DNA of 64,000 nucleotides from a virus (IMGVR_UViG_3300033070_001154:1-64000), one strand, 5' to 3'. Positions 30,660 through 62,706 are shown, counted from the stretch's first letter. The notes: generated from the sequence alone by a model not told the origin. A program made the numbers and translations.

Positions 30660-31208
30660 TCATGTCCTTACCGCCCGGGCCATCTCGATGAGCAGGTCCC
30701 GGAATGGGACGGGGGTCCTCGCCCTCTCGTGCCGGCCCATCTTCTCTACTGAATGTTGCGCCCCGCTCCGGCCCCACTCCAGGGGGACTTCACCGACCCC
30801 GACGGTGTAGAGCCAGGTGGGCTTGCGAGCCCTGTGACCGTAGTGGCCCTGGTCCACACAGCAGGTCAGGCCATACGCATCAGCCTGGATCCAACCACCT
30901 GTGGATGGGGGCCGGCGGAGGCCATGAGCATCCCAGGCCTTGGAATCCTTGGGGTGCTCCAGCACACCTCCGTATCTCCGAACCGAAGCCAGTGCAGAGG
31001 CAAAGCAACCTCCATCATCTCCGAGGGTGTGAAGTCCGGGATGACTCGGACCGCCCTGGAAGTACCGCCCCCAGCGCTGGCATGGAGGATGGCCAACCAC
31101 GGGGAAGGGCCCGGAGTAGAGTCTGGCATCCCTCTTCGGCCCCCAGATGTCCACACCTGCAACGCGGGAGTAGACACCAGAAGGCTGGACGAAGAGTGCG
31201 GCGATCAT
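30660..31208 (-). CDS. Compact DNA cytosine-C5 methyltransferase-like protein
   Basis: MIAALFV..RDARLYSGPFPVVGHPPCQRW (catalytic PC), VLEHP (motif VI-like) and GHRARKPTWLY (motif VIII-like); TGATG-coupled start. Confidence 0.65.
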   Translation of the reverse strand: MIAALFVQPSGVYSRVAGVDIWGPKRDARLYSGPFPVVGHPPCQRWGRYFQGGPSHPGLHTLGDDGGCFASALASVRRYGGVLEHPKDSKAWDAHGLRRPPSTGGWIQADAYGLTCCVDQGHYGHRARKPTWLYTVGVGEVPLEWGRSGAQHSVEKMGRHERARTPVPFRDLLIEMARAVRT

Positions 31209-31462
31209 CAGTCGCGGAGAAGGAATGCCACGATGTAGGGATCCAGCTCCCGGATCTCGGACTCGCTCCAGAGCCTGGTCCCAATGGCCCACTTCCTGAA
31301 CCTCTCCGGGTTCTCGATCACCCAACGATTGTGGAGATAGCTCACGCCCATTTCTGGTCCGAACAACGGAGTACGCTCCCTGATCTCGCGAGGGACTACA
31401 CTGTCCCAGTCGCCAGGCCGTAACTCCTTGTCAAAGACGTTCCAGAGCTCGATCAGGGTCAT
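31208..31462 (-). CDS. Small protein, C-terminal motif family member
   Basis: MTLIELWNVFDKELR... preceded by AAGGAG at 7 nt; ends FRKWAIGTRLWSESEIRELDPYIVAFLLRD. Confidence 0.7.
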   Translation of the reverse strand: MTLIELWNVFDKELRPGDWDSVVPREIRERTPLFGPEMGVSYLHNRWVIENPERFRKWAIGTRLWSESEIRELDPYIVAFLLRD

Positions 31463-31514
31463 TCCATCACTCCTTGTCAAAGACGTTCCAGAGCTCGATC
31501 AGGGTCATTCCATC
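31423..31514. repeat. Perfect 46-bp tandem duplication
   Basis: ACTCCTTGTCAAAGACGTTCCAGAGCTCGATCAGGGTCATTCCATC at 31423-31468 and again at 31469-31514. Confidence 0.95.
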
Positions 31515-31756
31515 ATCTCCAGAGTGGCCCTGGCTTCGAGCAGCGCCATCTCCTCCGGCCCCCAGTAGTCCATGACCTCGGCCCACTTGTGGAACTCCAC
31601 CAGGTTGCCCAGCCTGAAGTGCCCAGCGACGTAGTCCATGTACACCCCCCGGTTGTGCACCAGCTTGGTCTTGGGGCCGATCGCATCCATTACTTCCCAG
31701 TAGCGGAAGCGATCCATCCCGAGGGACAGCTCCAGCAGGAAGGCCTGGAGTCTCAC
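31505..31756 (-). CDS. Small protein, C-terminal motif family member
   Basis: GTGA-coupled to the SbcC-like gene; ends FHKWAEVMDYWGPEEMALLEARATLEMME. Confidence 0.7.
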   Translation of the reverse strand: MRLQAFLLELSLGMDRFRYWEVMDAIGPKTKLVHNRGVYMDYVAGHFRLGNLVEFHKWAEVMDYWGPEEMALLEARATLEMME

Positions 31757-33318
31757 GGGCCCAGCCGGATATGGACGATGTCGGGGCCGAGAGGGAGATC
31801 GGGCAGTACGTGACTGACGAGAAGGACCTGCCTGGTTTCGGAGATGCGACACGCCAGGGACAGTAGCGCTTCCATGCCGGCCTCATCCAGCGTGTCGAAG
31901 GCTTCGTCCACGACCAGCGGTGTCTCCAGGGTCAGATTGCCCGTCCTGGAGGCCACCTCGGACATGGCCAGGGCCATGCTCAGGTCGATCCGGCGCTGCT
32001 CTCCGCCCGAGCACTGCGAGTAGCTGGTCGCCCCCGTCCCCTCGGTCACCAGGTCCAGGCCTGTCTCCCCAGCAGCCCGTAGCTGCACCATGGCCTTGGC
32101 AGAGATCAGCCTGAGGTACTCCGTCACCTTGCGATTCATCTCCGCAAGGTGGCTCTGGAGATAGACCCTCCTCGACTCCGCCAGGGTCGACACCACCCGC
32201 TTCTGCTCCTGATCCTCCGCGGATACGAGCAGCAGCTTCTCCTGTGCTGTCTTCAGCTCCAGACTGGCCAGGACGTATTCCAGGACCTTGTCCCAGAGCT
32301 CGTTCTCCGAGCGCAGGAAGCGCTCATGCAACTGCTCGTCACGCTCCAGCCGGGACTGGACCTGTGCCAGTTCACGCTGCCTCTGCTGGATCCGCTCCCG
32401 TATGGCGTAGAGCCGATCGCGCTCCTTGTAGCCCTCCGTCCTGGCCAGCGTCATGGCATCCACCGCCACCTTGGCAGCCTGCTCCGCTGCACCCAGCTCC
32501 GGGTTGGGGACGTTTCCCCCGCAGGCCTCGCACCGGGCCGACTCGCGCAGCAGGGTCGCCACCCTACGATTGGCAGCTTCTACATCGGCCACGGTCGCGT
32601 CCTCACGCTTCCCAGCCTGGTCGACAGTATCCTGCTGCGTTAGGACCAGCTGTCGTCCGGCCTCCAACCTGGCGTACAGGTACTCCGCGGTCTGTAGGTC
32701 TGCCTCGTGGCGGCTGTGGTCCATCGGGGTACGATCCTGTGCTAGCAGTACGCACGCCCTGTGGAAGTCGTTTGTGGCGCGATTGATCACAGACGCCGCC
32801 AGGTTCTCCCCCACCTTGGCATCGTTGAAGGCCACAGCCGCCTCCTTCGTCTTGACCTTGGCGCGCTCGATGGCCTGGTCGTAGCGGGCCGCTCCGGTGA
32901 GCCGGATCAGATGGTCCCAGCGGTAGGAGGCCGACCCGCCTGCGAAGGCCCCGACGGTCTTGCCGGAGAGGTGAAGAGACCGGCTCCAGGAGGCGAAGGT
33001 CCCGAAGCGGGCCTCCAGCTCGGCCAGTACCTTGGTCTTCTGCTGCCAGACAGGGTTGCCGTCCAGACGGACACGCTCCCCGGAGGGGGAGACCACCCGC
33101 TTGATGGTCCTTCCCCCGGAGAGGAAGACATCCACCTCCGTGCCGGTGACCAACGGGCCGCCGCGCATGTTCTGGCCCCAGAGGGCCCAGACCAGGGCCC
33201 CCAGGCGGGTGGTCTTGCCAGAGCCGTTGGCCCCAGTGAGGAGGGTCACCCTGGGACCGAGCTTGAGTTCACCCGAGGGCACCCCCAGGAAGTTGGACAG
33301 GGTGACCCTCTCGATCAT
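31753..33318 (-). CDS. SbcC/Rad50 (T4 gp46-like) SMC ATPase
   Basis: Walker A GANGSGKT; coiled coil with CEAC zinc hook; signature CSGGEQRR; Walker B VVDEAFDTLD; H-loop VSH. Confidence 0.9.
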   Translation of the reverse strand: MIERVTLSNFLGVPSGELKLGPRVTLLTGANGSGKTTRLGALVWALWGQNMRGGPLVTGTEVDVFLSGGRTIKRVVSPSGERVRLDGNPVWQQKTKVLAELEARFGTFASWSRSLHLSGKTVGAFAGGSASYRWDHLIRLTGAARYDQAIERAKVKTKEAAVAFNDAKVGENLAASVINRATNDFHRACVLLAQDRTPMDHSRHEADLQTAEYLYARLEAGRQLVLTQQDTVDQAGKREDATVADVEAANRRVATLLRESARCEACGGNVPNPELGAAEQAAKVAVDAMTLARTEGYKERDRLYAIRERIQQRQRELAQVQSRLERDEQLHERFLRSENELWDKVLEYVLASLELKTAQEKLLLVSAEDQEQKRVVSTLAESRRVYLQSHLAEMNRKVTEYLRLISAKAMVQLRAAGETGLDLVTEGTGATSYSQCSGGEQRRIDLSMALAMSEVASRTGNLTLETPLVVDEAFDTLDEAGMEALLSLACRISETRQVLLVSHVLPDLPLGPDIVHIRLGP

Positions 33319-33617
33319 GTGGCCTGCTCCAGCAGCCCCTTGGCGTTGTCACGGATGCGGGCATTGCGGACCGCGACGAGCGCCAGGACACAGGCCTTGT
33401 CCTGGATGTCCATGGCGGCGAAGTCCTTGAGCTCCGCACGCTTCTTCTCCAGGCGCTCCCAGGTCAGCTGGACCGGCGGGGTCATCTTCAGCCCCTTGAG
33501 CTGGTCCAGCAGCTCGTTGATCTCGTCCATGCTGGGATCGCCCGCTGGAACGTCGTCCAACACCGTGTCGATCACCCCCAGGTCGTACACCATCTCGGTC
33601 TTCTTCTCGTCAGCCAT
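33315..33617 (-). CDS. Hypothetical protein between the SbcD- and SbcC-like genes
   Basis: MADEKKTEMVY..., 100 aa, high GC3; C-terminal part of track ORF 33315..34526. Confidence 0.7.
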   Translation of the reverse strand: MADEKKTEMVYDLGVIDTVLDDVPAGDPSMDEINELLDQLKGLKMTPPVQLTWERLEKKRAELKDFAAMDIQDKACVLALVAVRNARIRDNAKGLLEQAT

Positions 33618-33619
33618 GA

Positions 33620-34711
33620 TCAACGCTCCCTGATGTGATCCAGGCACTGTGCCCAGACCCTCTGTGTTGAATCCTCTGCCAGATCCGCACCACTGCGCTC
33701 CAGCACCTCCGCAATCACCTCCTCGGCGCTTGCGAAACCCTCCTCCGAAGCCTGCTTCCCTGGCTCGGAGTCCACCGCTACCCCCTGCACCCTGTAGCCC
33801 TGGATCAGGTTGAGCTCCCGCAGAACCGAGAGCAGCGGAGCCGACTTCTCGGTCCCGTCCAGATACAAGCCCGCCCCCTGGCTGTTCAAGGCCCTGACCA
33901 ACAGCTCCTGGATGGTCGAGCCATCGGGCACTTTCTGGAAGGCCGGCCCCTTCACCCGGAGGCTGTAGTACCTGCTCACACCGTCGTTGAAGCCCACCAC
34001 CAGTGCCGCTGCGTTGGAGAAGTTCACTGCGCTCCAGTCCAGATCGGCGTAGCTTCCGATGGCACGGGATTGACTGTCCGGCCTGTGGCGGATCACGGAA
34101 CGTGCCCCGTGCTCGTGCCCGGAGATCACAAGCTGGCTTGGTACATCCTGGTTCGCACGGACACCGCGCTTGGCCAGGAAGCGGAAGATGTCCCGCTCCG
34201 TGACCTGGTCCGGGCGGGTAGCGGTATCTACCACCCCGTAGTGCATCACGATCTTGTCTGCCCCCTGGATGGCATACAGAGCCATCTCCAGCGCCTCCAG
34301 GGTCGAGTGTGAGATGTACGGGATCATCGCCACCCTCATCCCCCCTAGCTCGACCTGCTCCGGATCCTCGTAGACATGGATCCCCTCGATGTGCGCCAGA
34401 GGCGCCAGAGCAGATGGAACACCAAAGGCCCCCGCATCGTGGTTGCCTCGGAGAAGGTGCCAGCGCAGCCCCGAGGCCTTCATCATCCGAATGCAGGCTT
34501 CGACAACTGGGGCCGGCGGGCGGCACTGGTCGAAGTAGTCCCCGACCTGCACCACGTCCGTCACGTCATGCCTGGACACCGCCAGGGCCACCGTGCGCTC
34601 CACTGAGGACAACAGCTCCCGACAGCGCCGGTTGACGCCCCCGACCAGCTCTCCGCCCTCGTAGCGGTGATTGTGAAAGTGAGTGTCACCGAGGAAGAGT
34701 ACGCTACCCAT
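33620..34711 (-). CDS. SbcD/Mre11 (T4 gp47-like) metallophosphoesterase nuclease
   Basis: GDTHF, GDYFD, RGNHD, VMH and SGHEH motifs. Confidence 0.9.
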   Translation of the reverse strand: MGSVLFLGDTHFHNHRYEGGELVGGVNRRCRELLSSVERTVALAVSRHDVTDVVQVGDYFDQCRPPAPVVEACIRMMKASGLRWHLLRGNHDAGAFGVPSALAPLAHIEGIHVYEDPEQVELGGMRVAMIPYISHSTLEALEMALYAIQGADKIVMHYGVVDTATRPDQVTERDIFRFLAKRGVRANQDVPSQLVISGHEHGARSVIRHRPDSQSRAIGSYADLDWSAVNFSNAAALVVGFNDGVSRYYSLRVKGPAFQKVPDGSTIQELLVRALNSQGAGLYLDGTEKSAPLLSVLRELNLIQGYRVQGVAVDSEPGKQASEEGFASAEEVIAEVLERSGADLAEDSTQRVWAQCLDHIRER

Positions 34712-34726
34712 TACAACCCTTCTGCC

Positions 34727-34939
34727 CTACTTGAAGATGAAACGATGCCTCAGCAGGGCGTGCTCGACGGCGCAGTACATCCGGTGGAAGTGACAGGCAC
34801 ACTCGTAGCAGATGAGCCCCTCGCCCTCCGGCCCGAATGGCAATGTCCCGGTGGCGAGCTGGTAGATCATGCACAGTCGGGTGTCCGGGTAGTACGCCAC
34901 GTCGATCTTGGCTGCCTTGCAGGCCTGGCAGATGCTCAC
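34727..34939 (-). CDS. Small Cys-rich (Zn-finger-like) protein
   Basis: SICQAC...LICYECACHFHRMYC; GTG start estimated. Confidence 0.45.
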   Translation of the reverse strand: MSICQACKAAKIDVAYYPDTRLCMIYQLATGTLPFGPEGEGLICYECACHFHRMYCAVEHALLRHRFIFK

Positions 34940-35104
34940 AGGCGCACCTTCTCGCTTCCGACGACGATGCACCCCCGCTCCTCCAGACGCCGTAGAACCT
35001 GCTGCAACGTGCGGAACGTATGCCAGTAGGCGATATGCAGGCGCCAACAACCCATACAGAGTCGTGTGATGTACATGGTACCTCAGCTATGTCGGGAGGG
35101 AAGG

Positions 35105-35134
35105 CGTGGCACGATCAGGGCGATTCGTGCCACG
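35105..35134 (-). terminator. Hairpin downstream of the SSB gene (terminator / stability candidate)
   Basis: Perfect 10-bp inverted repeat CGTGGCACGA / TCGTGCCACG; weak U-tract. Confidence 0.45.
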
Positions 35135-35180
35135 GTCGGGGAGGTGGGAGGGTTCGCATGGGATGCGAACACCTATTTCG

Positions 35181-36218
35181 TCAAAAAGGGACGTCGTCGT
35201 CGTCACCCGGAACGGTGCCGAACTCCGTCTCCAGGTCCTGCTGGGCGGTGCGCTGGGGGGCCGGAGCGGCCTGACGGGGAGCCGGGGCCTTGGCGGGGGC
35301 GGCGTTGAAGTCGATGAAGGTGTTGACCTTGTCGATGCCAGCGGCGGCCTCCTCGTGGGTACGCATCCGGAGGAAGATGGAGAGGCCGGCCCGATCGTCC
35401 AGGAGCTTCTGGATGGAGGCCTCGTCGTTGGCGATGGGGATGAGGTTGGGCACCTCCACCTCGCGGACCTTGCCGCCGATCATGGCCTTCTCCTTGATGG
35501 TCACGACGCTCACCGGGTAGGTGGTGTCGAGGTCCACGCCGGACTTGACGATGCAGATCTCGGGGCCCTCGTTGGGGTCCGTGAGGTTGGGGTTGTCCCT
35601 GAGGATCTCCACCAGCCCGCCGACCTGGTTCTTGGTCGTGCCCTTCCAGATCCCGCCGCCGACCTGGAACACCCGCACCCCGGAGAACTGCTCGGGCACA
35701 GGCCCGCCCGCCCAGGACGTGAAGACCACGTTCATGGCGATCTGGGTCTTGGCCTTGGAGCCCGCCATCTTCTTGGCGCCGCGGAAGCGGGGGTTGGCCC
35801 GGAGGTAGTCCTTCTGCTGCTCCTCGCTCATCTTCTCCATGGGCCAGTTGATCTGCTCGTTCAGGGCGCGGATGAAGTCGCACCCCTCGCACTGCTCCTC
35901 GCCGTTGCTGTGGCGCCAGAAGCAGTTGAACCCGGCCCACTCCCGGTTGCCCTCGTTGAAGAAGAAGTGCTCGTCGAAGCGCACCCAGGGCATCACCATG
36001 TCGGACATCGCCGGGAGGATCCGGAAGGTCACCCGGCCCGAGTTGGGCCTGCCCTCCTGCTCCGTGGGCAGGTCCTTCTGCTTGACCACCAGACCCTTGG
36101 TGCTCTTCCCCACGAACTTGGAGCCACCACCCTTCTTGGCCCCACCCTTGGCAGCGGCGATCTCCGCTTCCAGGGCAGCCGCGTCGATGGGCGCGTTGTT
36201 GCTATTGATGTTTCCCAT
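35181..36218 (-). CDS. Single-stranded DNA-binding protein (T4 gp32-like)
   Basis: RVTFRILP..PW...H.F..NC..CEGC, LTDPNEG..I.KSG...T.Y.V and an acidic C-terminal DDDVPF tail. Confidence 0.8.
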   Translation of the reverse strand: MGNINSNNAPIDAAALEAEIAAAKGGAKKGGGSKFVGKSTKGLVVKQKDLPTEQEGRPNSGRVTFRILPAMSDMVMPWVRFDEHFFFNEGNREWAGFNCFWRHSNGEEQCEGCDFIRALNEQINWPMEKMSEEQQKDYLRANPRFRGAKKMAGSKAKTQIAMNVVFTSWAGGPVPEQFSGVRVFQVGGGIWKGTTKNQVGGLVEILRDNPNLTDPNEGPEICIVKSGVDLDTTYPVSVVTIKEKAMIGGKVREVEVPNLIPIANDEASIQKLLDDRAGLSIFLRMRTHEEAAAGIDKVNTFIDFNAAPAKAPAPRQAAPAPQRTAQQDLETEFGTVPGDDDDVPF

Positions 36219-36266
36219 TGTCCTTAGTCCCTTTCACATGGAGCTCTCTGGCTCCGTCCTTCAGAC

Positions 36267-36719: not shown

Positions 36720-36747
36720 TCCCGCCGCCTTTGTGGCGACAGAGACT

Positions 36748-52440: not shown

Positions 52441-54495
52441 CTAGCCGATCCTGACGTTGAACGTGCGCTGGGACTTGCCCGTACGCACCCGGACGATCGC
52501 CGAGTCCTTCTTGGTCGAGCTGAAGCCCAGACCCGCCAGGCCCCCCTCGGTCGGGGCACACTTGGTCTTGTCCCCGACCACCTCCAACACCTTCCTGTGG
52601 GGCTCCAGGCGGGTGTGGAGGAACTCGTTGTAGATGCCCCGCAGGTCCTCGTCGCACCTGGCCCCGTCGAGCACGAAGAAGGTGTGCTTGTTCCCGACGG
52701 CGTTGTTGCCCCAGTAGTTGGGGGACAGGGTGACGGTGTTGACCTTCACGAACTGGCCCGTGGTGAGCCCCCACTTGTCCTGCTTGACGGTGGCGGAAGT
52801 GATCGTCGGGTCACCGGCCTCCACCCTCTCGATGGTCCCGCCCTTCATGTGGAGGGTGCAGACGGTCACGTCGGAGCGGCTCCGCACCACCTTGTTGTAG
52901 GAGAAGTGGGAGAGCTTCCCGCTCGACTCCACCTCGACCACGAAGCCCACGTCGGAGGTCTCCCGCTGGTTGTAGTTGTTGACGACCACCCGGTACGCCC
53001 CGTCAGGCATCCGGGCAGCCCAGACGATGTTCTCGACGGGCTCACGGGTCAGCCCGCCTCCGGCGTTCATGTCCACGTCGAGCACCCCGCCCGACGCACC
53101 ATGCTTGCAGCCGAAGTAGATGCGACCGTGTCCGATGGGCTCGTAGATGTGCAGGTCCAGGTCGTCGTAGTTGGTCCACGACAGGGAGACTCGCAGGACT
53201 GCCCCTTCGACCCGACCGCCGGCCTTCTTCACGCGCTCCCTGATGCTGTCCGTCACGTTGCCGCCGTAGGACCAGGCGAAGTCGTTGTCCCAGCGGAACA
53301 GGTGCTTCGGCTCCGGGTGGACCGGGGCAGTGATCGCCATGAGGTTCCCGATGTGCTCGTTCTTGAAGAGCACCTCCAGGCCCGTGGCGCTGGGGAGCAC
53401 CCTCGTCATGAAGTCGTCCAGGGCGATCTCCTCGGCCTTGCTCTCGTCCACGGTCTCCGGGCTGGTGCTCCGTGCGTGGGACATCAGCACGTCCCCGATG
53501 CCGCCCTTCATCAGGGGCTTGGCCGACCCGTCGACCCAGAGAACGTCCGTGATGGAGATGTCCCTGATCGTGGCGAAGCGCCGCTCCAGGGCCGACTCCA
53601 GATCGAGCTCCTTGATGGTCGCCATGGCCCTCTCGACCATGGCGGGGGTGATCAGCGCGGTGGTGCGCTTGTAGTTCTGGGGGGCCACCTTGCTCTCGTA
53701 GGAGCGCACCGCCCACTCAAGGTCCGTCCCCGACGACAGGTCCGTCACCAGGGTGCCGATCACCGTGTTCTTGAACCGGGCGGCGGGATCCGCCGAGTGT
53801 GCCCAGGCGAAGGTGCGACGCTTCTCCTCGGGCAGCTTGAGGTACGCCCGCTGGGACTTCTGGAACTGCTTGACCGCGGGCCGGTGCTCCTCGCCCCGGT
53901 AGAGGTTGTTGGCGTCGATCAGGCCCATCACCGTGTCCACCGCCTCGGGGGTGAGCTCGATCAGGCCCCGCTCGAACACCTCCACGGTCGTTCGGAAGCT
54001 GCCGCACTCCGTTCCGGGGGAGGAGACCCGGAGGTTGGCGGGGATCTGGCCCGTGTAGAAGTGCTCCCAGGTGAGCACCTTCTTGGTCACGGCGTCCTGC
54101 GACCGGGAGGTCTGGGTGCCGAAGCTCGACTCCTTCGTGGCCACCCGGAAGAGGTCGCTGATGGGCGAGGCCCGCACCTTCTCCCGGAGAGCCGCCGCCA
54201 CCGTGTTGTAGGGCGCGGGGGCGTCCTTGGCCGCGTCGTCCCAGACCGTGTTGATGTGCCCGTCGTCGTTGATGGTCACGACGTTCCCGATCCGCCTGAT
54301 GAAGCTCTTGCACATCCCGCAGTCGTGCTCCGTCCTCTTGGCGAAGATGGGGTTGGTGCCCTCGGGGAAGGCCCCGAGGTACGCCTCGTACAGCTCGTCT
54401 CCCGTCACTCCCGAGACGAGGACGGGGTTGCTCTTGGCGAGCCGCTGGAACGTGTTGGAGACGGCCTGAGCGAACGAATGGAAACCTGGGATCAT
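52441..54495 (-). CDS. Large conserved phage protein with CxxC and YfaP/DUF2135-like beta-sandwich segment
   Basis: EHDCGMCKSFIRRIG near the N-terminus; LRVSLSWTNYDDLDLHIYEP..LDVDMN..PVENI. Start placed at MIPGF. Confidence 0.75.
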   Translation of the reverse strand: MIPGFHSFAQAVSNTFQRLAKSNPVLVSGVTGDELYEAYLGAFPEGTNPIFAKRTEHDCGMCKSFIRRIGNVVTINDDGHINTVWDDAAKDAPAPYNTVAAALREKVRASPISDLFRVATKESSFGTQTSRSQDAVTKKVLTWEHFYTGQIPANLRVSSPGTECGSFRTTVEVFERGLIELTPEAVDTVMGLIDANNLYRGEEHRPAVKQFQKSQRAYLKLPEEKRRTFAWAHSADPAARFKNTVIGTLVTDLSSGTDLEWAVRSYESKVAPQNYKRTTALITPAMVERAMATIKELDLESALERRFATIRDISITDVLWVDGSAKPLMKGGIGDVLMSHARSTSPETVDESKAEEIALDDFMTRVLPSATGLEVLFKNEHIGNLMAITAPVHPEPKHLFRWDNDFAWSYGGNVTDSIRERVKKAGGRVEGAVLRVSLSWTNYDDLDLHIYEPIGHGRIYFGCKHGASGGVLDVDMNAGGGLTREPVENIVWAARMPDGAYRVVVNNYNQRETSDVGFVVEVESSGKLSHFSYNKVVRSRSDVTVCTLHMKGGTIERVEAGDPTITSATVKQDKWGLTTGQFVKVNTVTLSPNYWGNNAVGNKHTFFVLDGARCDEDLRGIYNEFLHTRLEPHRKVLEVVGDKTKCAPTEGGLAGLGFSSTKKDSAIVRVRTGKSQRTFNVRIG

Positions 54496-54522
54496 GGGAT
54501 TACCTCTCTTGTCCATGTACGA

Positions 54523-54551
54523 AAGGCCGGGACGTACCAACGCCCGGCCTT
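54523..54551 (-). terminator. Rho-independent terminator-like hairpin
   Basis: AAGGCCGGG / CCCGGCCTT 9-bp stem; on the minus strand it ends in CCTTTC. Confidence 0.5.
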
Positions 54552-54593
54552 CTGGTGATCTACTTGTGCCCGGTCGCTGGCCGGGATGACCGA

Positions 54594-54944
54594 CTACTTG
54601 GGGTCGCGGGGCTCGTCCCCAGGGAACTTGACGGTCCACTGGAAGAGGGGGTTGATGGGGCTCGTCGACTGGAGCCGGATCAAGAGCTGCTCGGTCTTCC
54701 TGAGCAGCGCCAGCATCTCCTTGTGCTCACTGGTCAGCTTCTCCATGCTCCGGTGGAGCTCGTTTGCCTGGTTGGCGAAGTCCACGGCGGTAGCGTTGGC
54801 CTCGTCGGATTCATCCCGGAGGGCCTTGTTCTCGATCCGGAGGGAGACGAGCTCGTCCTCCAGCTCGTGGATACACTCCCTCACCTTCCGACAGGCGGGG
54901 CAGGCGGCGACACAGTTCCCGTCTTGGGCTGTGAGGTGGATCAT
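54594..54944 (-). CDS. Coiled-coil protein with N-terminal CxxC
   Basis: MIHLTAQDGNCVAACPAC, then heptads; TGATG-coupled. Confidence 0.6.
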   Translation of the reverse strand: MIHLTAQDGNCVAACPACRKVRECIHELEDELVSLRIENKALRDESDEANATAVDFANQANELHRSMEKLTSEHKEMLALLRKTEQLLIRLQSTSPINPLFQWTVKFPGDEPRDPK

Positions 54945-55360: not shown

Positions 55361-56722
55361 CTAGTCCTCCGAAAGGGCCGCGTACCCGAACTTCAGGTAC
55401 GCGGCGTTCCTGCCCTCGGAGTGCCTTTCGAGCCAGATACAGCTCTTGTGGGCCCCTCCGCATCCACAGCCTCGATCGTCGATGTCGTAGACCCGGAACT
55501 CGTCCTTGGTGGAGCCGTCCGCCTGGAATCTCCGGCTACCACGTCCAACCTTCTGGATCACGTCGATGGTTGCCTTCCCTCCGGCCCCGTTGATCACCGT
55601 GTTGACCTCAGGGATGTCCACGCCCTGCCTGAAGATCGGGGTGGAGATCAGCGTCCCCACAGACCCCGCCTTGAAGGCCTCCAGGATGCTCTTGACCTGC
55701 TTCGAGGGCGTCTCGTCGTTCACCGTCAGGCAGTCCACCCCCAGCAGCTTCGCCAGGACGGCCTGGTGCTCCTTGGTCCGGACGAACACGATCCTCGGGG
55801 ACTCGGAGGAGCAGACCAGACGTGCCAGCAGCAGGTTCCTGGCCTTGTTCCTGACGATGGCCCTGCGCTCCCACTGATCGTACCGACCGTTGGCCGGGTG
55901 GCAGGGATGCTGGAGCGGAACCATCCTCAATCTGCACCGGGCCACGATCCCGCGGTCCACTGCCTTTGCAGGAGTGAAACGGTGGATCACCTCCCCGAGG
56001 ACCCCCACGATGTACAGGCTCTTCTTGTCCGCCCTCTCCATCGGGGTCCCCGAGAACCCCAGTCGTATGGCCGCATTCACGCACCGCATCAGCGGCTCCA
56101 GAAGCGTAGGGCTCGGAACCCCATGACACTCATCAACCAGGACAGCTACGAAGCCCTCCAGGTCGTGCTTCTTCAGGGTCTTCAGGCTGGCGGCGATGCA
56201 CACCACCACCCGAGGGCCCAGATCCCTCCGGCCATCCCCAACCCGTCCCGCCTTGATCCCGTGCTTCGCCAGCCGATCACACATCTCGATCAGGAGCTGC
56301 TTGGAAGGCACCACCACCAGGACACGCCCGATGATGTGCTTGCAGAGCACGGAGATGGTCGTGCCCTTGCCCGTGCCCGTCGCGTGCTGGATCACTCCCC
56401 GGTACCGACCCTGGAGAACCTCCATGATCGCATCACGCTGGTGCGGCCAGCAGACAGACAGGTCCACCTTCTCGGGCGGAACGATCACCCCCGGCAAAGC
56501 CCTCAGGATCCTCTGTGCTGGCGTCCCCCTCTCCCGAAGGGTGCGAACCACCATGTCCGAGAGACCTGCCGGGAAGAGCCCGTCAGGGGTCAGCAACGAG
56601 GCGCTGGTACCCTCCCCGGTGTGACGGCGGGAGGTGAAGGTCAGATAGGTACGGAGGAAGTCCAGCTCCTCGGGGGAGGCGTCCTTGACCCTGGCCCAGG
56701 CGTACCCGACCTGGATCAGCAC
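55361..56722 (-). CDS. Superfamily 2 DNA helicase (UvsW/ResIII-like)
   Basis: HATGTGKG (I), VDECH (II), FSGTP (III), FRQGVDIP (V), IQKVGRGSR (VI); GTG start estimated. Confidence 0.88.
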   Translation of the reverse strand: MLIQVGYAWARVKDASPEELDFLRTYLTFTSRRHTGEGTSASLLTPDGLFPAGLSDMVVRTLRERGTPAQRILRALPGVIVPPEKVDLSVCWPHQRDAIMEVLQGRYRGVIQHATGTGKGTTISVLCKHIIGRVLVVVPSKQLLIEMCDRLAKHGIKAGRVGDGRRDLGPRVVVCIAASLKTLKKHDLEGFVAVLVDECHGVPSPTLLEPLMRCVNAAIRLGFSGTPMERADKKSLYIVGVLGEVIHRFTPAKAVDRGIVARCRLRMVPLQHPCHPANGRYDQWERRAIVRNKARNLLLARLVCSSESPRIVFVRTKEHQAVLAKLLGVDCLTVNDETPSKQVKSILEAFKAGSVGTLISTPIFRQGVDIPEVNTVINGAGGKATIDVIQKVGRGSRRFQADGSTKDEFRVYDIDDRGCGCGGAHKSCIWLERHSEGRNAAYLKFGYAALSED

Positions 56723-57063
56723 CCCATCATCTCCGCGGTCAGACGGGCAGCCATTGCTTGGAACTGCTCCTCGTTGATCAGGCCGACTTTCCTGGCCCAG
56801 CGTAGACAGGCCCCCGGGTCCACTGTGGTCAGCCGATCGCCGGTTCCGTAACTCACCCACCTGGTCCCAGGAACAGGTAGCTTCATCCAGGCCCCCAATC
56901 TCCTGAAGTGTCTGAAGGTCATACGGATGTAGGACCGGAAGAAGTATTGATCCCCTTGAGCGTTCTGTAATACCAGATCTGTGACGAACTCCATGGGGGA
57001 GTAGTCAAGCCACAGCCTCTGGATCTTGGCGTTTGCCAGGGTGCGATTACGCCGAGGCCTCAT
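56716..57063 (-). CDS. Small protein, C-terminal motif family member
   Basis: Ends CLRWARKVGLINEEQFQAMAARLTAEMMGC. Confidence 0.65.
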   Translation of the reverse strand: MRPRRNRTLANAKIQRLWLDYSPMEFVTDLVLQNAQGDQYFFRSYIRMTFRHFRRLGAWMKLPVPGTRWVSYGTGDRLTTVDPGACLRWARKVGLINEEQFQAMAARLTAEMMGC

Positions 57064-57313
57064 AGCGGCCCGTCTCCTTGTTGTAGGTGCGATTGGCCAG
57101 TTTGAACTCCACCACGTCATCCCCGAAGTAGCGCCTGAGGGCGGAGAGGTGGACGTAGTTCCGGCCCTCGAACATGACGAAGGTGAGCGTCCCGTCCTTC
57201 TTGCGGTTGAAGAGGGTCCTGCGGCTCACACCGAACACTTCGATCACGTCGTCCATGGCCATGTACTCGGGGCCCCAGGCCTTGATGTTGGGCCCGTGCT
57301 TGCTGTCACTCAT
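57047..57313 (-). CDS. Excisionase-like HTH DNA-binding protein
   Basis: YMAMDDVIEVFGVSRRTLFNRKKDGTL...GRNYV; ATGA-coupled to the sigma gene. Confidence 0.7.
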   Translation of the reverse strand: MSDSKHGPNIKAWGPEYMAMDDVIEVFGVSRRTLFNRKKDGTLTFVMFEGRNYVHLSALRRYFGDDVVEFKLANRTYNKETGRYEASA

Positions 57314-57852
57314 CGTCTCTTCCTTAGCTCTCCGACCACCCAGCTCCTGGCAGCCCGAAAGTCCGTCTCGCTCATCCCGAGCAGATCCGAAGCCTCCGAG
57401 GTCGTCACCGCCCCCACCAGAGACGCTGCCAGGACCCTCGCACCTTCCGGTCCCGCCAGCTCCTCCATGTGGACAAGCAACTCCCTGCATTCTGTTGCAC
57501 ACTCTTGCCACAGTGTCGAGCGCCCATCGCTCTGGATGTCTTCGTATTCGACCGCATGCACCGATTCACCGAGCTCGTAGGCGTCCCTGTGGACCTTGAG
57601 GGGTGTGCCCAGCTTGAGCAGCTCCCGGAGCATGGCGTACCGAACCGGGGTGTAGAGGTGCGTGATCCACTGGGAGCGGGATTCGTCATACCGCTCGTGC
57701 GCCTGGATGGCAGCCAGGAGGCCGGCCTGTCGCAGGTCCCACAGCTCCACCCCCCGACGGCGAGCGTGCTTGGAGAACTTCTTGGCGAACTTCTCCACTG
57801 CATCCTGGGCAACGGATAGCTGCTCAGGGGAAGGACGCTTCGTTGGCGGCAT
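57310..57852 (-). CDS. Phage RNA polymerase sigma-70-family factor
   Basis: Region 2 DLRQAGLLAAIQAHERYDESR.QW.T.LY..VR; region-4-like TTSEASDLLGMS. Confidence 0.75.
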   Translation of the reverse strand: MPPTKRPSPEQLSVAQDAVEKFAKKFSKHARRRGVELWDLRQAGLLAAIQAHERYDESRSQWITHLYTPVRYAMLRELLKLGTPLKVHRDAYELGESVHAVEYEDIQSDGRSTLWQECATECRELLVHMEELAGPEGARVLAASLVGAVTTSEASDLLGMSETDFRAARSWVVGELRKRR

Positions 57853-57861
57853 GGTATCTCC

Positions 57862-58191
57862 CTAATCACCCATCAGACGGAGTGTGAGCTTCGCCAGAGC
57901 GAGCTCCTTCATCTCGGGCGAGATGGTCCCGTGTGCGACCAGCCAGTCCAGAAGGACGAGCTGGTCCACCCCGAAGATGCATTCGACATTGCCGAATCGC
58001 TTGGGGGTCGCAAAGGGCTGATCCAATAGCTCCAGCGGGAACGCTATCCCGTCGTCGCCACAGACAGTCCACGAATCCCGATACGCACTTGTGGCCAGGC
58101 CGGGAGTGCTCTCCGTGTAGCTCTCCTCCGTCTCTGCCAGGAAGCGACAGAGCGTACAGACCTCGTTGAGCGCCTGATTCTTGGTGGCCAT
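57862..58191 (-). CDS. Small protein, C-terminal motif family member
   Basis: Ends LLDWLVAHGTISPEMKELALAKLTLRLMGD. Confidence 0.7.
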   Translation of the reverse strand: MATKNQALNEVCTLCRFLAETEESYTESTPGLATSAYRDSWTVCGDDGIAFPLELLDQPFATPKRFGNVECIFGVDQLVLLDWLVAHGTISPEMKELALAKLTLRLMGD

Positions 58192-58192
58192 G

Positions 58193-58522
58193 TCACCCGT
58201 CCTCCATCAGCTCCAGGGTTCTCCGCGCTCGTAGGCTGTCTCGCTCCCCCATTCCGATGGCCCCGATGGAGTGAAACCAGTCCAGGGCTTCGTCGAAGTC
58301 CACCCCGTAGTACGATTCTAGCCCAGAGTACTGGCAGATGCGCGGGACCATGAATGGCTGCGAGCGCAGCTCGTGCAGGTCAATACGCATCCCGGCGAAG
58401 CGGAGGGACGCACACCACTCTGGCATGGCGGATACGAGCACTCCCGCGTAGTCGCTGTCTGCGCTCCGCTCTGGCTCAGTAAGGAAGCTCAGGAACCTGT
58501 AGATGCGCTCCGGACCCGTCAC
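58193..58522 (-). CDS. Small protein, C-terminal motif family member
   Basis: GTGA-coupled; ends ALDWFHSIGAIGMGERDSLRARRTLELMEDG. Confidence 0.7.
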   Translation of the reverse strand: MTGPERIYRFLSFLTEPERSADSDYAGVLVSAMPEWCASLRFAGMRIDLHELRSQPFMVPRICQYSGLESYYGVDFDEALDWFHSIGAIGMGERDSLRARRTLELMEDG

Positions 58523-58713
58523 ACATCCTCCAACAGCCCCAGGGTCAGCTCGGCCTGGAACCACTTGTAGAGCTGTGACCGCATCCAGTTGTAGTTGGCG
58601 CCCTTGGGGTCGAGCATCCTCTTCACGGCGTTACAGACCGCGTTCCGCTTGAGCCGCTCTTGCATGGCGATCCTCTTTCGATCCTGGGAGCGGACCAGCA
58701 GGGCCGGTTTCAT
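58519..58713 (-). CDS. Small protein with the short form of the C-terminal motif
   Basis: Ends YKWFQAELTLGLLEDV. Confidence 0.6.
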   Translation of the reverse strand: MKPALLVRSQDRKRIAMQERLKRNAVCNAVKRMLDPKGANYNWMRSQLYKWFQAELTLGLLEDV

Positions 58714-59037
58714 TCATCCCTCCACACAGGACAGGAGCACTGCGGCGTTGAACCAGAGCACCTCCTCTTCGCTCATCCTGAGAGCGTTGATGAGGAAGTC
58801 AGCCCAGGCTCCGGTGTCCTTGGCATAGATGTAGGTGGTACTCCTGATCGTGTCTCGGGCGAAGAGATCGCTCTCCCACCAGAGCCTGGGCATTCCCAGT
58901 TCGTAACAGGCTGCCCATGCTGTGCCGTTCTCGCTCAGGGAGCATCTACCCCCTGGGCGGGCCTCCGGACCCTGGACGACTTCGTAGAGATTGAGCACCT
59001 CCCGTTTCCAGGCGGTGCTCATCCTGTCGAGTCGCAC
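58714..59037 (-). CDS. Small protein, C-terminal motif family member
   Basis: Ends WADFLINALRMSEEEVLWFNAAVLLSCVEG. Confidence 0.65.
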   Translation of the reverse strand: MRLDRMSTAWKREVLNLYEVVQGPEARPGGRCSLSENGTAWAACYELGMPRLWWESDLFARDTIRSTTYIYAKDTGAWADFLINALRMSEEEVLWFNAAVLLSCVEG

Positions 59038-59038
59038 G

Positions 59039-59959
59039 TCAGCCCTCGATGGCTCCGGAGGCGAGGGCGGCGAAGCCGATCTGGAGTCCGGAGAGGGACT
59101 GGCGAAGCTCCCCGAGCTTGGTGTCGAAGATGGCCTCGTAGCGCTCCACCACCTCGCACTGGTGGGTGATGATCTTCATCCGGGCGTCCAGGACCCGACC
59201 CTGGATGGTGCGCTTCTTGGGGTCCGGGTCGGACTTGATGGCCTTGTACTTCTGGAGGTCCTCCTTGAGCTCCTCCATGGCCGTCTCGGTGTACTTCTTC
59301 ACCGACTCCAGGACGCACTCCATGGCCTGTTCCGACCTCATGGCGGGGATCTCGTACAACCTGGCCCCGTAGGGGTGGAGCACCTCGCGCAGGACCCGCC
59401 AGGTCTTCACCTCCTCCGGGCCGATGAAGTAGGTCCCCGCCCCGCCGATGGTGGGCACGCCCTTGAGCATCGTCTTCACGAAGCCCACGAGCCAGTTGCT
59501 GACCTCCGTCCCGCCGAGGGTGGCCAGGGCCGCGGGGTAGAGCACCTCCACGTCGTCCCTGGAGTTCTGCGGGGCCGACTCGGAGAAGAACAGGCTGGTC
59601 TCCCCGCTCGTCCCGTCCTTGTCCAGGCCGCAGGCCCAGGATTCCACGAAGGCCACCTTCTTGGTCGCGCTCTCCTCCTTCGGGAGCACACCGTAGGCGG
59701 GCATCTTCGACCTGTTGGGGTTGGGCACCGGCTTCACCAGCTGGTCCCTCTTCTGGAAGAGCGAGGTCATCACCCGCAGGAGCGCCGCCGCCGGGGTGGC
59801 CGGCTCCGGGAGCATGGTGATGCCCGCAGCGGTCAGCTTCTGGCAGAGCTCGTTGTGGTCGATCTCCTCCCCCAGCTTCCAGGACACCGAAGCCCCGGCA
59901 ATGCCGCTCTTGAGCATGTCATCCGACACCTGGATCAGCCCGATCGTCTCGTTCTTCAT
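59039..59959 (-). CDS. 306-aa hypothetical with C-terminal coiled coil, linked to the AAA+/VWA genes
   Basis: Near-complete GC3; GAGAGGG RBS. GA.VSW.L...L..AG...LP.P.TP..AL.R pattern is recalled from genes linked to AAA/VWA modules (unverified). Confidence 0.75.
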   Translation of the reverse strand: MKNETIGLIQVSDDMLKSGIAGASVSWKLGEEIDHNELCQKLTAAGITMLPEPATPAAALLRVMTSLFQKRDQLVKPVPNPNRSKMPAYGVLPKEESATKKVAFVESWACGLDKDGTSGETSLFFSESAPQNSRDDVEVLYPAALATLGGTEVSNWLVGFVKTMLKGVPTIGGAGTYFIGPEEVKTWRVLREVLHPYGARLYEIPAMRSEQAMECVLESVKKYTETAMEELKEDLQKYKAIKSDPDPKKRTIQGRVLDARMKIITHQCEVVERYEAIFDTKLGELRQSLSGLQIGFAALASGAIEG

Positions 59960-59971
59960 CGTTGTACCCTC

Positions 59972-60250
59972 TCATCCTTCCATCAGGGCCAGAGCGTCCT
60001 TCGCATCCAGCCACATCCGTTGTTCCTCGGAGAGAATCCCGTGCTCCACCAACCAACCGAGCAGGGCATCCCGATCTTCCGACCACATCCTGTTGGTCCG
60101 GGTCGTACTCATCCAGGGCTGCTTCAGGATGTTGCGCCTGTAGGGCTCCAGACTTCCCCACCGCGTCCCAGGGTTGGCACCGCGGTTGTACCTAGCCTCG
60201 GGGCCTTCCATGAGCCAAATCAGGATCTTCTCACCCCATTCGTCGATCAT
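59972..60250 (-). CDS. Small protein, C-terminal motif family member
   Basis: Ends LLGWLVEHGILSEEQRMWLDAKDALALMEG. Confidence 0.7.
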   Translation of the reverse strand: MIDEWGEKILIWLMEGPEARYNRGANPGTRWGSLEPYRRNILKQPWMSTTRTNRMWSEDRDALLGWLVEHGILSEEQRMWLDAKDALALMEG

Positions 60251-60534
60251 CCGACCGTCCCCATGAGCAGGGTGGCGTTCACCATGTTCCAGTCGTCCTC
60301 GGTGAGCCCACCCTGCTCCCTCACCAGCCGCTCCAGAGCAGCTAAGTCTTCGATCATCAGGATGCAGCTCCTGCCGCCGTCGTCCCTGTGACCCCAGGTA
60401 CCCTCAGGGTACACACCCTGTGGTAGCCCGAGGTCCTTGAACACTAGTTCGCAGTACCGCTGGGAAGCTCTCCCGACAGTCGGGAGTTCGAGCGTCTCCA
60501 GGAAGTCCAGGTACGACTGCGCTCTGGTCTTCAT
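60247..60534 (-). CDS. Small protein, C-terminal motif family member
   Basis: MKTRAQ...; ends LERLVREQGGLTEDDWNMVNATLLMGTVG. Confidence 0.65.
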   Translation of the reverse strand: MKTRAQSYLDFLETLELPTVGRASQRYCELVFKDLGLPQGVYPEGTWGHRDDGGRSCILMIEDLAALERLVREQGGLTEDDWNMVNATLLMGTVG

Positions 60535-60587
60535 CAGGGCTCCATGAGCTTGAGCGCCAAGCTCGCGGCTTTGCTGGTCCCCGTCAG
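60534..60587 (-). other. Out-of-frame 17-codon extension of the VWA gene ending in the family motif
   Basis: The -1 frame after TCC CCC TGA reads LTGTSKAASLALKLMEP-stop; that stop is TGATG-coupled to the next ATG. Confidence 0.55.
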
Positions 60588-61933
60588 GGGGACGGCGGGA
60601 GGTCATCATCCACCATCCTGAGGATGCGGCCCCAGCCCTGCTCGACGGAGCGGGCCACGTCGTTCTCGCTTCCGTTGGGGGTGATCACCCAGATCACGGG
60701 GTAGCCCCTGTACTCCCCAGGGGAGCCGATCCAGCCATCGGTGAGGCAGACGCCCACGTCGATGTTCTTCTTCTGGAGCAGGTCCAGGGCGGCGTTCATG
60801 TCCGTGCCGCCTCCGCCCGTCATCTGGGAGGTGATCTGCTGGACGGTGCCAACCCTGCCCCCATCGGTGACCTGGGTATCGCAGAAGGCGACCTCCACAT
60901 CGGCATTGAGGTGGGCGATCAGGCCCATGATCTCGGAGACGCACATCCCGAGCGTGCCCCCCATGGAGCCGGAGGTGTCCTGGATGACTCCGACCCTCGG
61001 GACGAACTCCACCAGGCCCGGCAACCTGGCCTTGCCGATCCCATGGCCGATACCCGCCTGCCTCCGGGAGGGCGTGGTCCAGATGGCGTCCTCGGCGCCG
61101 CTACGGTGCTCGATGTCGGTGCAGACCATCGAGCGGAGGGCGTCCGTCCAGTGGACACGAGGGGGCTTGAGACCGTCCTCGATCTCCAGCAGCAGGCCGG
61201 CGGGGACGCTGCCACGGTTCTGCTCCTCGTGGCGCTGCGCCTTCTCCATCGCGGACTTGACGATCCGCTCGGTCCTGGCCTCGGTCCAGCCGCCCGTCTT
61301 GTCCGCGACCGCCTGGGCGGACTCAGAGAGCTCGTCACCCTCCTGTGGAGCGCACCCCTGACCCGGCTGTCCGGTCCCCTGACCATCCCCGAGCTTCGGG
61401 AGCTTCCCGGCCTTCTTCTTCTGCTTGAGGAGGCCGTAGTAGGCCTCGAAGGTGAGACCATCTTCGAGCCCGAAGTCGGAGGGGAAGACACCAGTGAGCT
61501 TGCCAGTCGGGGGCGTGATCCCCATGGAACCCGCCCGGACCTTCTCGGCAGCCGCCTTGAGCGAGGGGTTGATGGACAGGTCCAAGGCGATGCCAACGAG
61601 CCGGAGATCCGCGTCCGGCTCCCGGAGCAGCACCTTCCGCTTCCTCTTGGCGTGGTTCATGAGGACGTGGAAGGCCTCGTGGGCAATCACGAAGGCCAGC
61701 GCCTTGATCCCTCCGCACTCCACGATCTCCAGCAGGAACTGCGGATGCACCAGCATCTGCGCCCGCTCCGTCACGGCCATGGTGGGCATCCCGCCCGGGG
61801 TGACGATCCGCTCGTCCACGGCGTAGCCCATGGAGACGATCACCGTTTCCAGGTACGGAAACGTCCGCACCGCTGCTGCCCGCGCCAGCAGGAACCGCTC
61901 GCTCGGTGTCCTCGAAACCTTCACGTCTGCCAT
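60584..61933 (-). CDS. Metallopeptidase-like + VWA domain protein (DUF2201-type)
   Basis: IAHEAFHVLMNH (HExxH); MIDAS-type QDTSGSM, GGGGTDM and CLTDG. Confidence 0.88.
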   Translation of the reverse strand: MADVKVSRTPSERFLLARAAAVRTFPYLETVIVSMGYAVDERIVTPGGMPTMAVTERAQMLVHPQFLLEIVECGGIKALAFVIAHEAFHVLMNHAKRKRKVLLREPDADLRLVGIALDLSINPSLKAAAEKVRAGSMGITPPTGKLTGVFPSDFGLEDGLTFEAYYGLLKQKKKAGKLPKLGDGQGTGQPGQGCAPQEGDELSESAQAVADKTGGWTEARTERIVKSAMEKAQRHEEQNRGSVPAGLLLEIEDGLKPPRVHWTDALRSMVCTDIEHRSGAEDAIWTTPSRRQAGIGHGIGKARLPGLVEFVPRVGVIQDTSGSMGGTLGMCVSEIMGLIAHLNADVEVAFCDTQVTDGGRVGTVQQITSQMTGGGGTDMNAALDLLQKKNIDVGVCLTDGWIGSPGEYRGYPVIWVITPNGSENDVARSVEQGWGRILRMVDDDLPPSP

Positions 61934-62118
61934 AGCTCTCTCCTCAGCTCATCTGCGATGGCCGTCCTGAACCAGGCGGCCCCAATGCAATCTTCAAGTT
62001 CCCGACAGTGCAGCGTGGCGACGTGTCGGATGAGCGGGTCTTTGCGCTCTATGAGGATGTCCGCGTGGTTGCGGAGCCGTCTCATCAGGTGGTTTTCCCA
62101 CCGCTTGATCAGGGGCAT
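61921..62118 (-). CDS. Small helical hypothetical
   Basis: MPLIKRWENH...; C-terminal part of track ORF 61921..62343. Confidence 0.5.
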   Translation of the reverse strand: MPLIKRWENHLMRRLRNHADILIERKDPLIRHVATLHCRELEDCIGAAWFRTAIADELRRELWQT

Positions 62119-62405
62119 GGCTCGTCGCTCCCCATCAGATGTGCCGTGTAGAGCTGGAGCAGGAACTCCCCCGCTTCCCCTGGGATGGAAGCAAAGAAGG
62201 CATTGGGGTCGTGGATGACCAGGACCTGCTCCCCCGGCTTGTACTCGTATGTGGAAGTTCTCCACTCGGCTCCTGGAGCAGGAGTGGGAATGTCCAGGCC
62301 GTTCTCGTTGTACGCCTCCACGCTGTCTTCGGACATCACCCACTGGGGCTTGTTCAACAGGTGCTGCATCAGCCCCTTACAGAGTGTGAGCATGTAGGGC
62401 GCCAC
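62109..62405 (-). CDS. Small protein, paralog of 62407..62706
   Basis: GGAGGA plus GTG start; ends AFFASIPGEAGEFLLQLYTAHLMGSDEPCP. Confidence 0.65.
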   Translation of the reverse strand: MAPYMLTLCKGLMQHLLNKPQWVMSEDSVEAYNENGLDIPTPAPGAEWRTSTYEYKPGEQVLVIHDPNAFFASIPGEAGEFLLQLYTAHLMGSDEPCP

Positions 62406-62406
62406 T

Positions 62407-62706
62407 TCACTCCTCCATGAGGTTCCGGGTGTAGACCAGCCTAAGCAGGTCGCCGCCGGGTCCTCCGACTGATTCGATGAAGGCGGCCCGGTTGGTGACC
62501 CTGACGACCCGCTCCCCATGCATCCATGCGTGCTCGGAGACTGCGTACTCCATGCCGTTGTCTGTAGCAGGCTCGGGGATGTGGAATCCCCTATCCCTGC
62601 AATCCTCGATGTACCATATGGCCAGGACATCAGCAGGCTCCATGTCCAGGACCTCGACCATGTCTATGGCCCAGTCCATGGAGGACATGCTACTGTCAGT
62701 CGCCAT
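62407..62706 (-). CDS. Small protein, paralog of 62109..62405
   Basis: Ends AFIESVGGPGGDLLRLVYTRNLMEE. Confidence 0.65.
   Translation of the reverse strand: MATDSSMSSMDWAIDMVEVLDMEPADVLAIWYIEDCRDRGFHIPEPATDNGMEYAVSEHAWMHGERVVRVTNRAAFIESVGGPGGDLLRLVYTRNLMEE

Follow-up and report, generated by a model that had tools for sequence, protein, structure and literature searches.

The DNA analysed here (the window, 64,000 nucleotides [nt]) comprises bases 1-64000 of a 73,439-bp linear phage record in IMG/VR (IMGVR_UViG_3300033070_001154; completeness estimate, 83%; GC content, ~64%). A first-pass annotation of the window had described, between positions 31208 and 62706, a dispersed set of small proteins that share a C-terminal motif. 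Here, we report that these genes are diverged paralogs of one unannotated, phage-lineage-restricted family, and that their arrays turn over rapidly via duplication, deletion, and homologous recombination between neighbouring paralogs. The reading that we favour, and hold to be probable, is that of an expanded, fast-evolving family of small, acidic, probably dimeric single-domain proteins in which the shared tail is conserved core and the N-terminal half likely binds targets. The result is a hitherto unannotated protein family, restricted to a single group of uncultured high-GC phages; one phage gives over at least 11 genes to it. Its loci provide an unusually clean nucleotide-level view of tandem paralogs being fused, deleted, and reshuffled, with breakpoints in conserved motifs and surviving gene ends that keep the ribosome-binding site (RBS) of the next gene.

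The shared tail and the family that carries it

Genes are named here by their lowest coordinate and grouped as subfamilies A (59972), B (60247), C (57862 and 58193), D (31505), E (31208), and F (62109 and 62407), with 58714 and 56716 as types of their own. The eight tails listed in the first-pass annotation, and three more that it had called short, were all found where it placed them, on the minus strand. When ten tails from this genome were compared in pairs, 22 of 45 comparisons exceeded the 95th percentile of shuffled-tail pairs, and 13 exceeded the maximum of 900 such pairs. Leave-one-out hidden Markov model (HMM) searches ranked 59972, 56716, 57862, and 31505 first or second among 1119 six-frame open reading frames (ORFs) (56716, rank 1, E 5e-7; 57862, rank 1; 31505, rank 2); among the same ORFs, this test alone does not recover 58193, 31208, 58714, or 60247. 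The first of these is linked to the family via its full-length BLASTP match to 57862 (E 1.5e-9) and the other three via subfamily profiles that include relatives from the contigs of related phages.

Between subfamilies, the C-terminal ~40 amino acids (aa) are conserved at hhalign P values of 1e-5 to 1e-16. Tail profiles match at P 8e-12 (A-B), 1e-16 (A-C), 9.5e-8 (A-D), 1.2e-5 (A-E), 2.1e-5 (D-E), and 4e-11 (B-C), and the 58714 type matches the A tail at P 3.8e-5. On these sequence comparisons, the shared tail is real and conserved at the protein level. The motif as first drawn, counted from a Trp at position 0, is present; its start was set too late, as the conserved block begins ~12 residues earlier and has an acidic or amide residue near -7. 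The set of short tails did not hold together: 58519 is an internally deleted copy, and 62109 and 62407 belong to a subfamily of their own, whose tail ties it only weakly to the rest.

Searching the rest of the genome with tail models, as the first-pass annotation had proposed, returned two clear members and a tail remnant outside the window. In all, the family is represented in this phage by at least 11 intact genes, 2 with internal deletions, and 2 remnants; 4 of these 15 lie outside the window. From their likely starts (judged from orthologs and start-site context), the proteins are 81 to 115 aa long, shorter than the maximal ORFs. The family is acidic (median isoelectric point [pI], 4.8; median net charge, -7; pI below 6 in 92%).

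That the shared tail is instead a nucleic-acid feature (an RBS or coupling element, a recombination linker, or a trace of recent gene conversion) is very improbable. Codons are identical at 101 of 195 amino acids shared between paralog tails from -12 to +19, where codon usage predicts 104.9; synonymous codons thus agree no more often than codon usage would have them, which for this stretch excludes both a nucleic-acid element and recent gene conversion, and the amino-acid profiles match at P values down to 1e-16. The observations that favour a DNA-level cause concern the gene ends. Tails terminate in ATG-GAG-G, which serves the following gene as its Shine-Dalgarno sequence; of 11 mapped family genes, 10 have their ends between 7 nt beyond the next start and 13 nt short of it; deleted genes leave behind exactly their last ~10 codons; and the 306-aa gene, which is unrelated to the family and has a coupled gene downstream, likewise ends in E-G. 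The last 2 to 3 codons are therefore under an additional constraint, since they carry the Shine-Dalgarno sequence of a tightly coupled gene, and the codon test together with the profile matches restricts the DNA-level explanation to them. The first-pass caveat that the final M-E/G codons supply the next RBS yet cannot account for the rest of the motif was thus borne out for -12 to +19.

Recombination between neighbouring paralogs

Turnover is seen most directly in 59972 (60250 to 59972, minus strand, 92 aa), the subfamily A member, which is a deletion-fusion chimera. Its 5' part with upstream DNA (window 60364-60110) is 100% identical over 255 nt to L011:23-277, the first subfamily-A gene of the L011 array, and its 3' part with downstream DNA (window 60129-59900) is 99.1% identical over 230 nt to L012:806-1035, the last array gene of L012. 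These two BLASTN matches overlap in a 20-nt crossover interval common to both parental types (60110 to 60129, minus strand; codons 41-47, in the region of the Q-P-W motif). An L011-like 5' match joined to an L012-like 3' match indicates that 59972 is the fusion of two tandem paralogs from which the genes between were removed. Mosaics are common: among relatives, P0013 and P0016 have the 59972 head with a different tail, and P0007 and P0008 have a different head with an identical tail. At L005:6743-7018, a single 91-aa gene fuses a 62407-type head to a 62109-type tail, another fusion of neighbouring paralogs. Recombination of this kind produces head/tail mosaics. Copy number varies as well; the array between the VWA and 306-aa genes holds 2 genes here, at least 3 in L012 and at least 5 in L011 (both contigs end within it), and 6 in L005.

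Deletions within genes were also resolved. The 58519 copy (58519 to 58713, minus strand, 64 aa) keeps only the last ~13 tail residues and shows a 150-nt in-frame deletion relative to a 98-aa full member, L011:2617-2913; the DNA on either side (window 59060-58559 and 58559-58150) matches L011:2223-2723 and L011:2873-3282, respectively. In the 65931 gene, outside the window, ~96 internal nt are deleted, and the junction shows a 9-nt overlap. Between 60533 and 60609 (minus strand), following the stop of the VWA gene, three-frame translation identified the deletion scar of a lost subfamily-B gene, with the first 17 codons in one frame, the last ~10 tail codons in another, and a TGATG overlap with the start of 60247 at its end. 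Intact counterparts of this gene are the 115-aa P0038 and L005:8521-8847. A programmed frameshift after the VWA stop was considered for the same bases and is less likely than a deletion scar, because a gene that starts with the same 17 codons and ends in a similar tail is intact in relatives.

A second remnant, tail only, lies outside the window at L004:1462-1520 (genome about 65462-65520; also placed at ~65499-65511), between a 137-aa gene and the 65196 gene, at a spot where L008 and L010 hold one to three intact family genes. Further tail-only remnants are found at L005:4074-4199 and L008:6456-6707. Such remnants retain the gene's last codons, i.e., the RBS for the next gene.

The family also evolves quickly by substitution. 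Between this phage and L005, core genes have synonymous divergence (dS) of 0.3 to 0.47 and nonsynonymous divergence (dN) of 0.016 to 0.068, and family genes have dN of 0.3 to 0.5. Among eight orthologs of one subfamily-A gene, identity is 52% before Q-P-W and 78% in the rest.

Predicted fold, dimer, and function

Structures were predicted with AlphaFold2 using family alignments. The type A model (59972) has a predicted local distance difference test score (pLDDT) of 85 and a predicted template modelling score (pTM) of 0.76, and the type B model (60247, 95-aa form) has a pLDDT of 92 and a pTM of 0.83; each is a single domain. Both show the same order of helices (a) and strands (b), a1-b1-a2-b2-b3-a3-a4, with near-identical element lengths. 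In these models, the tail corresponds to helix a3, a Gly turn with a Ser/Thr-x-x-Glu helix cap, and helix a4, and its conserved positions are mainly hydrophobic or helix-capping, as is typical of a core.

A two-copy prediction of type B gave an interaction prediction score from aligned errors (ipSAE) of 0.46, against 0.01 for the best control, a level that 20 of 30 solved homo-pairs attain, as does 1 of 23 single chains. Homodimer runs agreed in at least 93% of contacts, with a partner pLDDT of at least 81. The predicted interface is large and symmetric (residues 2-23, 27-36, 47-48, 58-61, 64/67/71, and 76-89) and is built by a1, b1, and a2 together with residues of a3 and a4. Passing these controls, the modelled homodimer supports, without demonstrating, binding between copies, and because no relative has been solved, the pass is not the memory of a known complex. 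Tail conservation would then be explained if the tail is the structural and dimerisation core, as the models suggest.

The fold is confidently predicted and has no significant match among solved structures. Neither model gave a significant hit with Foldseek (PDB and BFVD), VIA-align wide, or an ESM Atlas shape search, and an ESM Atlas feature search gave no usable match; the best Foldseek rows had E of 0.12 to 1 and template modelling (TM) scores of 0.29 to 0.38, and the best VIA-align Z scores, 4.2 and 5.1, were both to other folds. For both models, the subthreshold Foldseek rows are enriched in winged-helix proteins of the MarR, PadR, and ArsR types, which also occur among the ESM Atlas rows.

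These rows raise the alternative that the proteins are winged-helix-like, dimeric, DNA-binding regulators of phage early or middle transcription, with the tail helices as dimerisation module. We regard this as quite improbable. MarR, PadR, ArsR, and other winged-helix proteins dominate the top nonsignificant rows for both models, the models resemble them in having an N-terminal helix, a helix plus a beta-hairpin "wing", and two C-terminal helices, the predicted dimer is symmetric and likewise uses the N- and C-terminal helices, and a phage sigma-factor gene lies within the array. However, no match reaches significance (Foldseek E of at least 0.1, TM of at most 0.38; VIA-align Z of at most 5.1), no sequence similarity accompanies it, and a single helix stands between b1 and the hairpin, where the pair of a helix-turn-helix is expected, so that one helix of the pair is missing. 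The strongly acidic composition (median pI, 4.8; median net charge, -7) also speaks against a basic DNA-binding surface and makes DNA binding unlikely.

Whether heads and tails are separate modules was examined by sequence and profile comparison. The first-pass annotation had found no similarity among the N-terminal heads. By pairwise BLAST this stands, as heads (last 40 aa removed) do not score above shuffled controls except for 57862/58193; by profiles and fold it fails for A, B, C, and the 58714 type. Without their tails, A and C still align over 52 columns (P 5.6e-5; minimum of 0.13 in 20 column shuffles), and full-length profiles are co-linear over 96 columns for A-C (P 1.6e-17), 92 columns for B-C (P 1.2e-8), and 76 columns for the 58714 type and B (hhalign P 1.9e-5). 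The main subfamilies share an N-terminal amphipathic helix ending in an acidic patch, the Q-P-W/F motif, a hairpin, and then the tail. Full-length homology, which the first-pass annotation had taken as the mark of ordinary paralogs, therefore holds, over nearly the whole length, for A, B, C, and the 58714 type, which make up a single family by co-linearity and by the predicted fold that A and B share; the others match by sequence in the tail only. Nor do the heads look like effectors, being ~45 to 70 aa long with no match to an enzymatic family.

A profile search of 1.84 billion representative proteins returned 54 matches, of which the small ones (69 to 118 aa) are family members that align, with few exceptions, along most of their length; apart from a short motif match in Cys-rich repeat proteins, no enzyme, annotated protein, or protein of other architecture among these representatives carried the tail. 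A search for longer proteins carrying the tail found none, which is weak evidence. A tail HMM run against six-frame ORFs of the genome and three related loci had no match in the ATPase, the DUF2201/VWA protein, or the 306-aa protein. Pfam-A gave no match at E up to 1 and NCBIfam none at E up to 0.1, PHROGs v4 gave two chance-level rows (E 0.3 to 0.4), and a PDB sequence search gave only spurious matches to repeated pyrroloquinoline quinone (PQQ)-propeller motifs.

The long proteins examined among the 54 matches (P0030, P0031, P0041, and P0045) reach E 2.5e-12 by summing 6 to 8 weak repeat matches. They are unannotated, secreted Cys-rich repeat proteins in which the second half of the repeat has an aromatic-A-x3-G-hydrophobic-x-x-E-E helix-turn-helix motif that matches the tail profile over 25 columns, from a3 into the beginning of a4 (hhalign probability, 83%; P 9.5e-6). 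Unlike the family, they are long, signal-peptide-bearing, and disulfide-rich, with repeats of ~48 aa; they have no significant Pfam family and one subthreshold ankyrin row. The match is probably a common helical-hairpin motif rather than a sign of shared ancestry.

The model put forward in the first-pass annotation was that the tail is a docking element linking variable adaptor heads to one shared partner, the candidates being the neighbouring ATPase, the HExxH/VWA protein, the 306-aa protein, or a host machine. We consider it unlikely. It would fit the observation that, among paralogs and orthologs alike, the tail is conserved much more strongly than the heads, as well as the natural reassortment of heads and tails; yet the conserved positions are core-like, the models place the tail within a compact domain and a homodimer interface, and the A, B, and C heads are homologous or share a fold. 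In every related contig that extends far enough to tell, most of the copies lie interspersed among the ATPase, DUF2201/VWA, and 306-aa genes. This co-occurrence comes from one phage lineage only and is thus not independent evidence, and two copies lie 25 kb away, beside SbcCD-like genes. None of the three candidate partner proteins carries the tail, and no carrier of other architecture appeared among the 1.84e9 representatives or in the longer-protein search; with the tail on neither another architecture nor the large neighbours, a docking-tag system is not supported. The extreme C-terminus, which is acidic, predicted at lower confidence, and outside the predicted dimer interface, is a point in favour of docking, and as a minority possibility the idea survives mainly for these exposed last residues.

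Modularity itself thus stands in part: the tail is conserved, heads diverge much faster, and the two reassort, but the heads are not unrelated modules. It is best explained as arising secondarily when tandem paralogs with a common fold recombine.

In the literature, the docking idea has its closest analogue in the effector-associated domains (EADs) of MoxR-vWA conflict systems. These small nonenzymatic domains, encoded as several paralogs in the vicinity of an ATPase and a vWA protein, were proposed to couple components by homotypic contacts; their pattern requires that a core component be fused to one copy and an effector or signalling domain to a further copy (PMC7159879). That pattern differs from ours in that no core protein here carries the tail. 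The carriers are 69 to 118 aa long with no effector or signalling fusion, and the "heads" are part of the same ~90-aa domain.

On the reading that we favour, each paralog would be one compact a1-b1-a2-b2-b3-a3-a4 domain forming a symmetric homodimer, the tail being conserved as structural and dimerisation core and the N-terminal half being freer to vary. That variable half would bind host or defence proteins, with different paralogs directed at different targets. Judged by length, charge, place in the genome, and rate of evolution, they most likely act as early host-interaction (possibly anti-defence) binders. If they do turn out to be host-defence or host-takeover binders, the family would offer a ready set of natural variants on one scaffold.

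Phages are known to encode lineage-specific clusters of small early or accessory proteins that evolve fast, among them host-takeover and anti-defence clusters. The present loci resemble them in having many short, translationally coupled genes among replication and transcription genes, copy numbers that vary between relatives, amino-acid divergence far above that of flanking core genes, and no database annotation; unlike them, at least 11 genes of one genome fall in a single family with one predicted fold, and the way they turn over, by paralog recombination within a conserved motif, can be followed to the nucleotide. A further comparison is with Ocr, ArdA, and Arn, phage inhibitors and DNA mimics that are small, acidic, and dimeric. 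The family is like these in length (~90 to 115 aa), strong acidity, predicted dimerisation, and placement among nonstructural phage genes, but has no sequence or fold similarity to them in our searches, and charge alone is weak evidence.

Several points weigh against the reading that we favour. Fold and dimer are predictions only, and for the monomer the evidence that the tail packs on the head comes from pTM and from the contacts listed for the dimer. The predicted interface does not extend to the last six residues, and in both models confidence is lowest for the final residues. For D, E, F, and the 56716 type, head homology is undetectable by sequence, and the match is confined to the tail. 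The copy at genome 65196-65465 keeps L-M-E though it has no closely coupled downstream gene, so the C-terminus may also act as an exposed recognition peptide. Finally, the host-binding function is purely what we infer, with no similarity to any characterised inhibitor in the searches run.

A scheme that joins several of these ideas is a long shot: a library of dimeric adaptors whose variable N-terminal faces would capture host (e.g., defence) proteins and whose conserved tail, with its exposed acidic C-terminus, would be read by the metal ion-dependent adhesion site (MIDAS) of the adjacent HExxH-peptidase/VWA protein, so that an ATPase-VWA pair could remodel or cleave the targets, and recombination between tandem copies would generate new specificities.

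Individual members and neighbouring genes

All members in the window are on the minus strand. The subfamily E member (31208 to 31462; 84 aa from an ATG at 31462; 84-aa ortholog P0009) has the most divergent tail (tail HMM E 2e-11). The subfamily D member (31505 to 31756; 83 aa from a GTG at 31756; 83-aa orthologs P0003, P0005, and P0006) has a start that abuts the stop of an SbcC-like gene. Between these two genes, a 46-bp tandem duplication (window 31418-31509; two copies, 96% identical) repeats the RBS and first 13 codons of 31208 and creates a 13-codon mini-ORF; it may be a real duplication or an assembly artefact.

The 56716 gene encodes a member with a basic head (56716 to 57063; pI 9.6), of 115 aa (start 57063) or 92 aa (start 56994), the start being uncertain; homologs of 112 aa are P0052 and L011:4369-4707. 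Its stop region overlaps the GTG start of the helicase gene, and L005 has no such gene at this position. The helicase is 453 aa here (window 55361-56722) with no Hint/intein match, against 752 aa with Hint/intein Pfam matches at L005:12886-15144; the relative L005 thus has an intein that this phage does not.

Both subfamily C members are 109 aa long: 57862 (57862 to 58191), directly upstream of the sigma-factor gene, and 58193 (58193 to 58522; tail HMM E 3e-15), which starts at a GTG at 58522 overlapping the 58519 stop and has 109-aa counterparts in P0001 and P0002. The divergent 58714 (58714 to 59037; 107 aa) is nearest to subfamily B and matches 59972 over its full length by BLASTP (E 1.4e-5). 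The subfamily B member, 60247 (60247 to 60534), is 95 aa from an ATG at 60534, with a drifted tail and a 94-aa ortholog, P0027. Subfamily F comprises two probable distant members with shortened tails, 62109 (62109 to 62393; 94 aa from an ATG at 62393) and 62407 (62407 to 62679; 90 aa, as is P0015), which match each other by BLASTP (E 3e-9) and subfamily A in the tail only (hhalign P 6.3e-5). The two clear members outside the window, recovered by HMM, are at genome 65196-65465 (L004:1196-1465) and 65931-66176 (L004:1931-2176).

Structural genes of the phage occupy the plus strand to ~26 kb, and from ~27 kb genes lie on the minus strand, including SbcCD-like genes, a helicase, a sigma-70-like factor, a P-loop ATPase, and a DUF2201_N plus DUF2201 protein. 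Relatives of the phage are known only as metagenomic contigs, and cultured phages are all distant: window 56001-64000 had no BLASTN match among INPHARED phages, and tblastn with the DUF2201 protein gave distant matches only (best, Thermus phage phiFa; 26% identity). A scan of IMG/VR returned no relatives of the 306-aa protein, and a scan of genome contigs returned none of the ATPase, which therefore gives no clue to a host or prophage.

The gene pair beside the array had been called MoxR/VWA. The second half of that name agrees with the 449-aa neighbour (the VWA gene, 60584 to 61933), which has above-threshold profile matches to DUF2201_N and DUF2201 (an HExxH peptidase plus a VWA-like part). 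The MoxR label is unconfirmed for the 430-aa ATPase (62696 to 63988), which has Walker A- and B-like motifs and, as sole match, PHROG 1297 "ATPase"; it has no Pfam match even at E 10 (no Pfam AAA model) and no PDB sequence match. Adjoining the array is a large, conserved, highly codon-optimised phage protein of 732 aa (window 52441-54639; PHROG 1735, unknown function, E 1.6e-229; no Pfam domain). A leader, GAGAGGGTACA, just upstream of the ATG is common to the genes for the 430-aa ATPase, the 306-aa protein (59039 to 59959), and a 221-aa protein (leader at window 63989-64010, window 59960-59981, and genome 66898-66919), the three most codon-optimised genes here, and may be a strong ribosome-binding or leader element.

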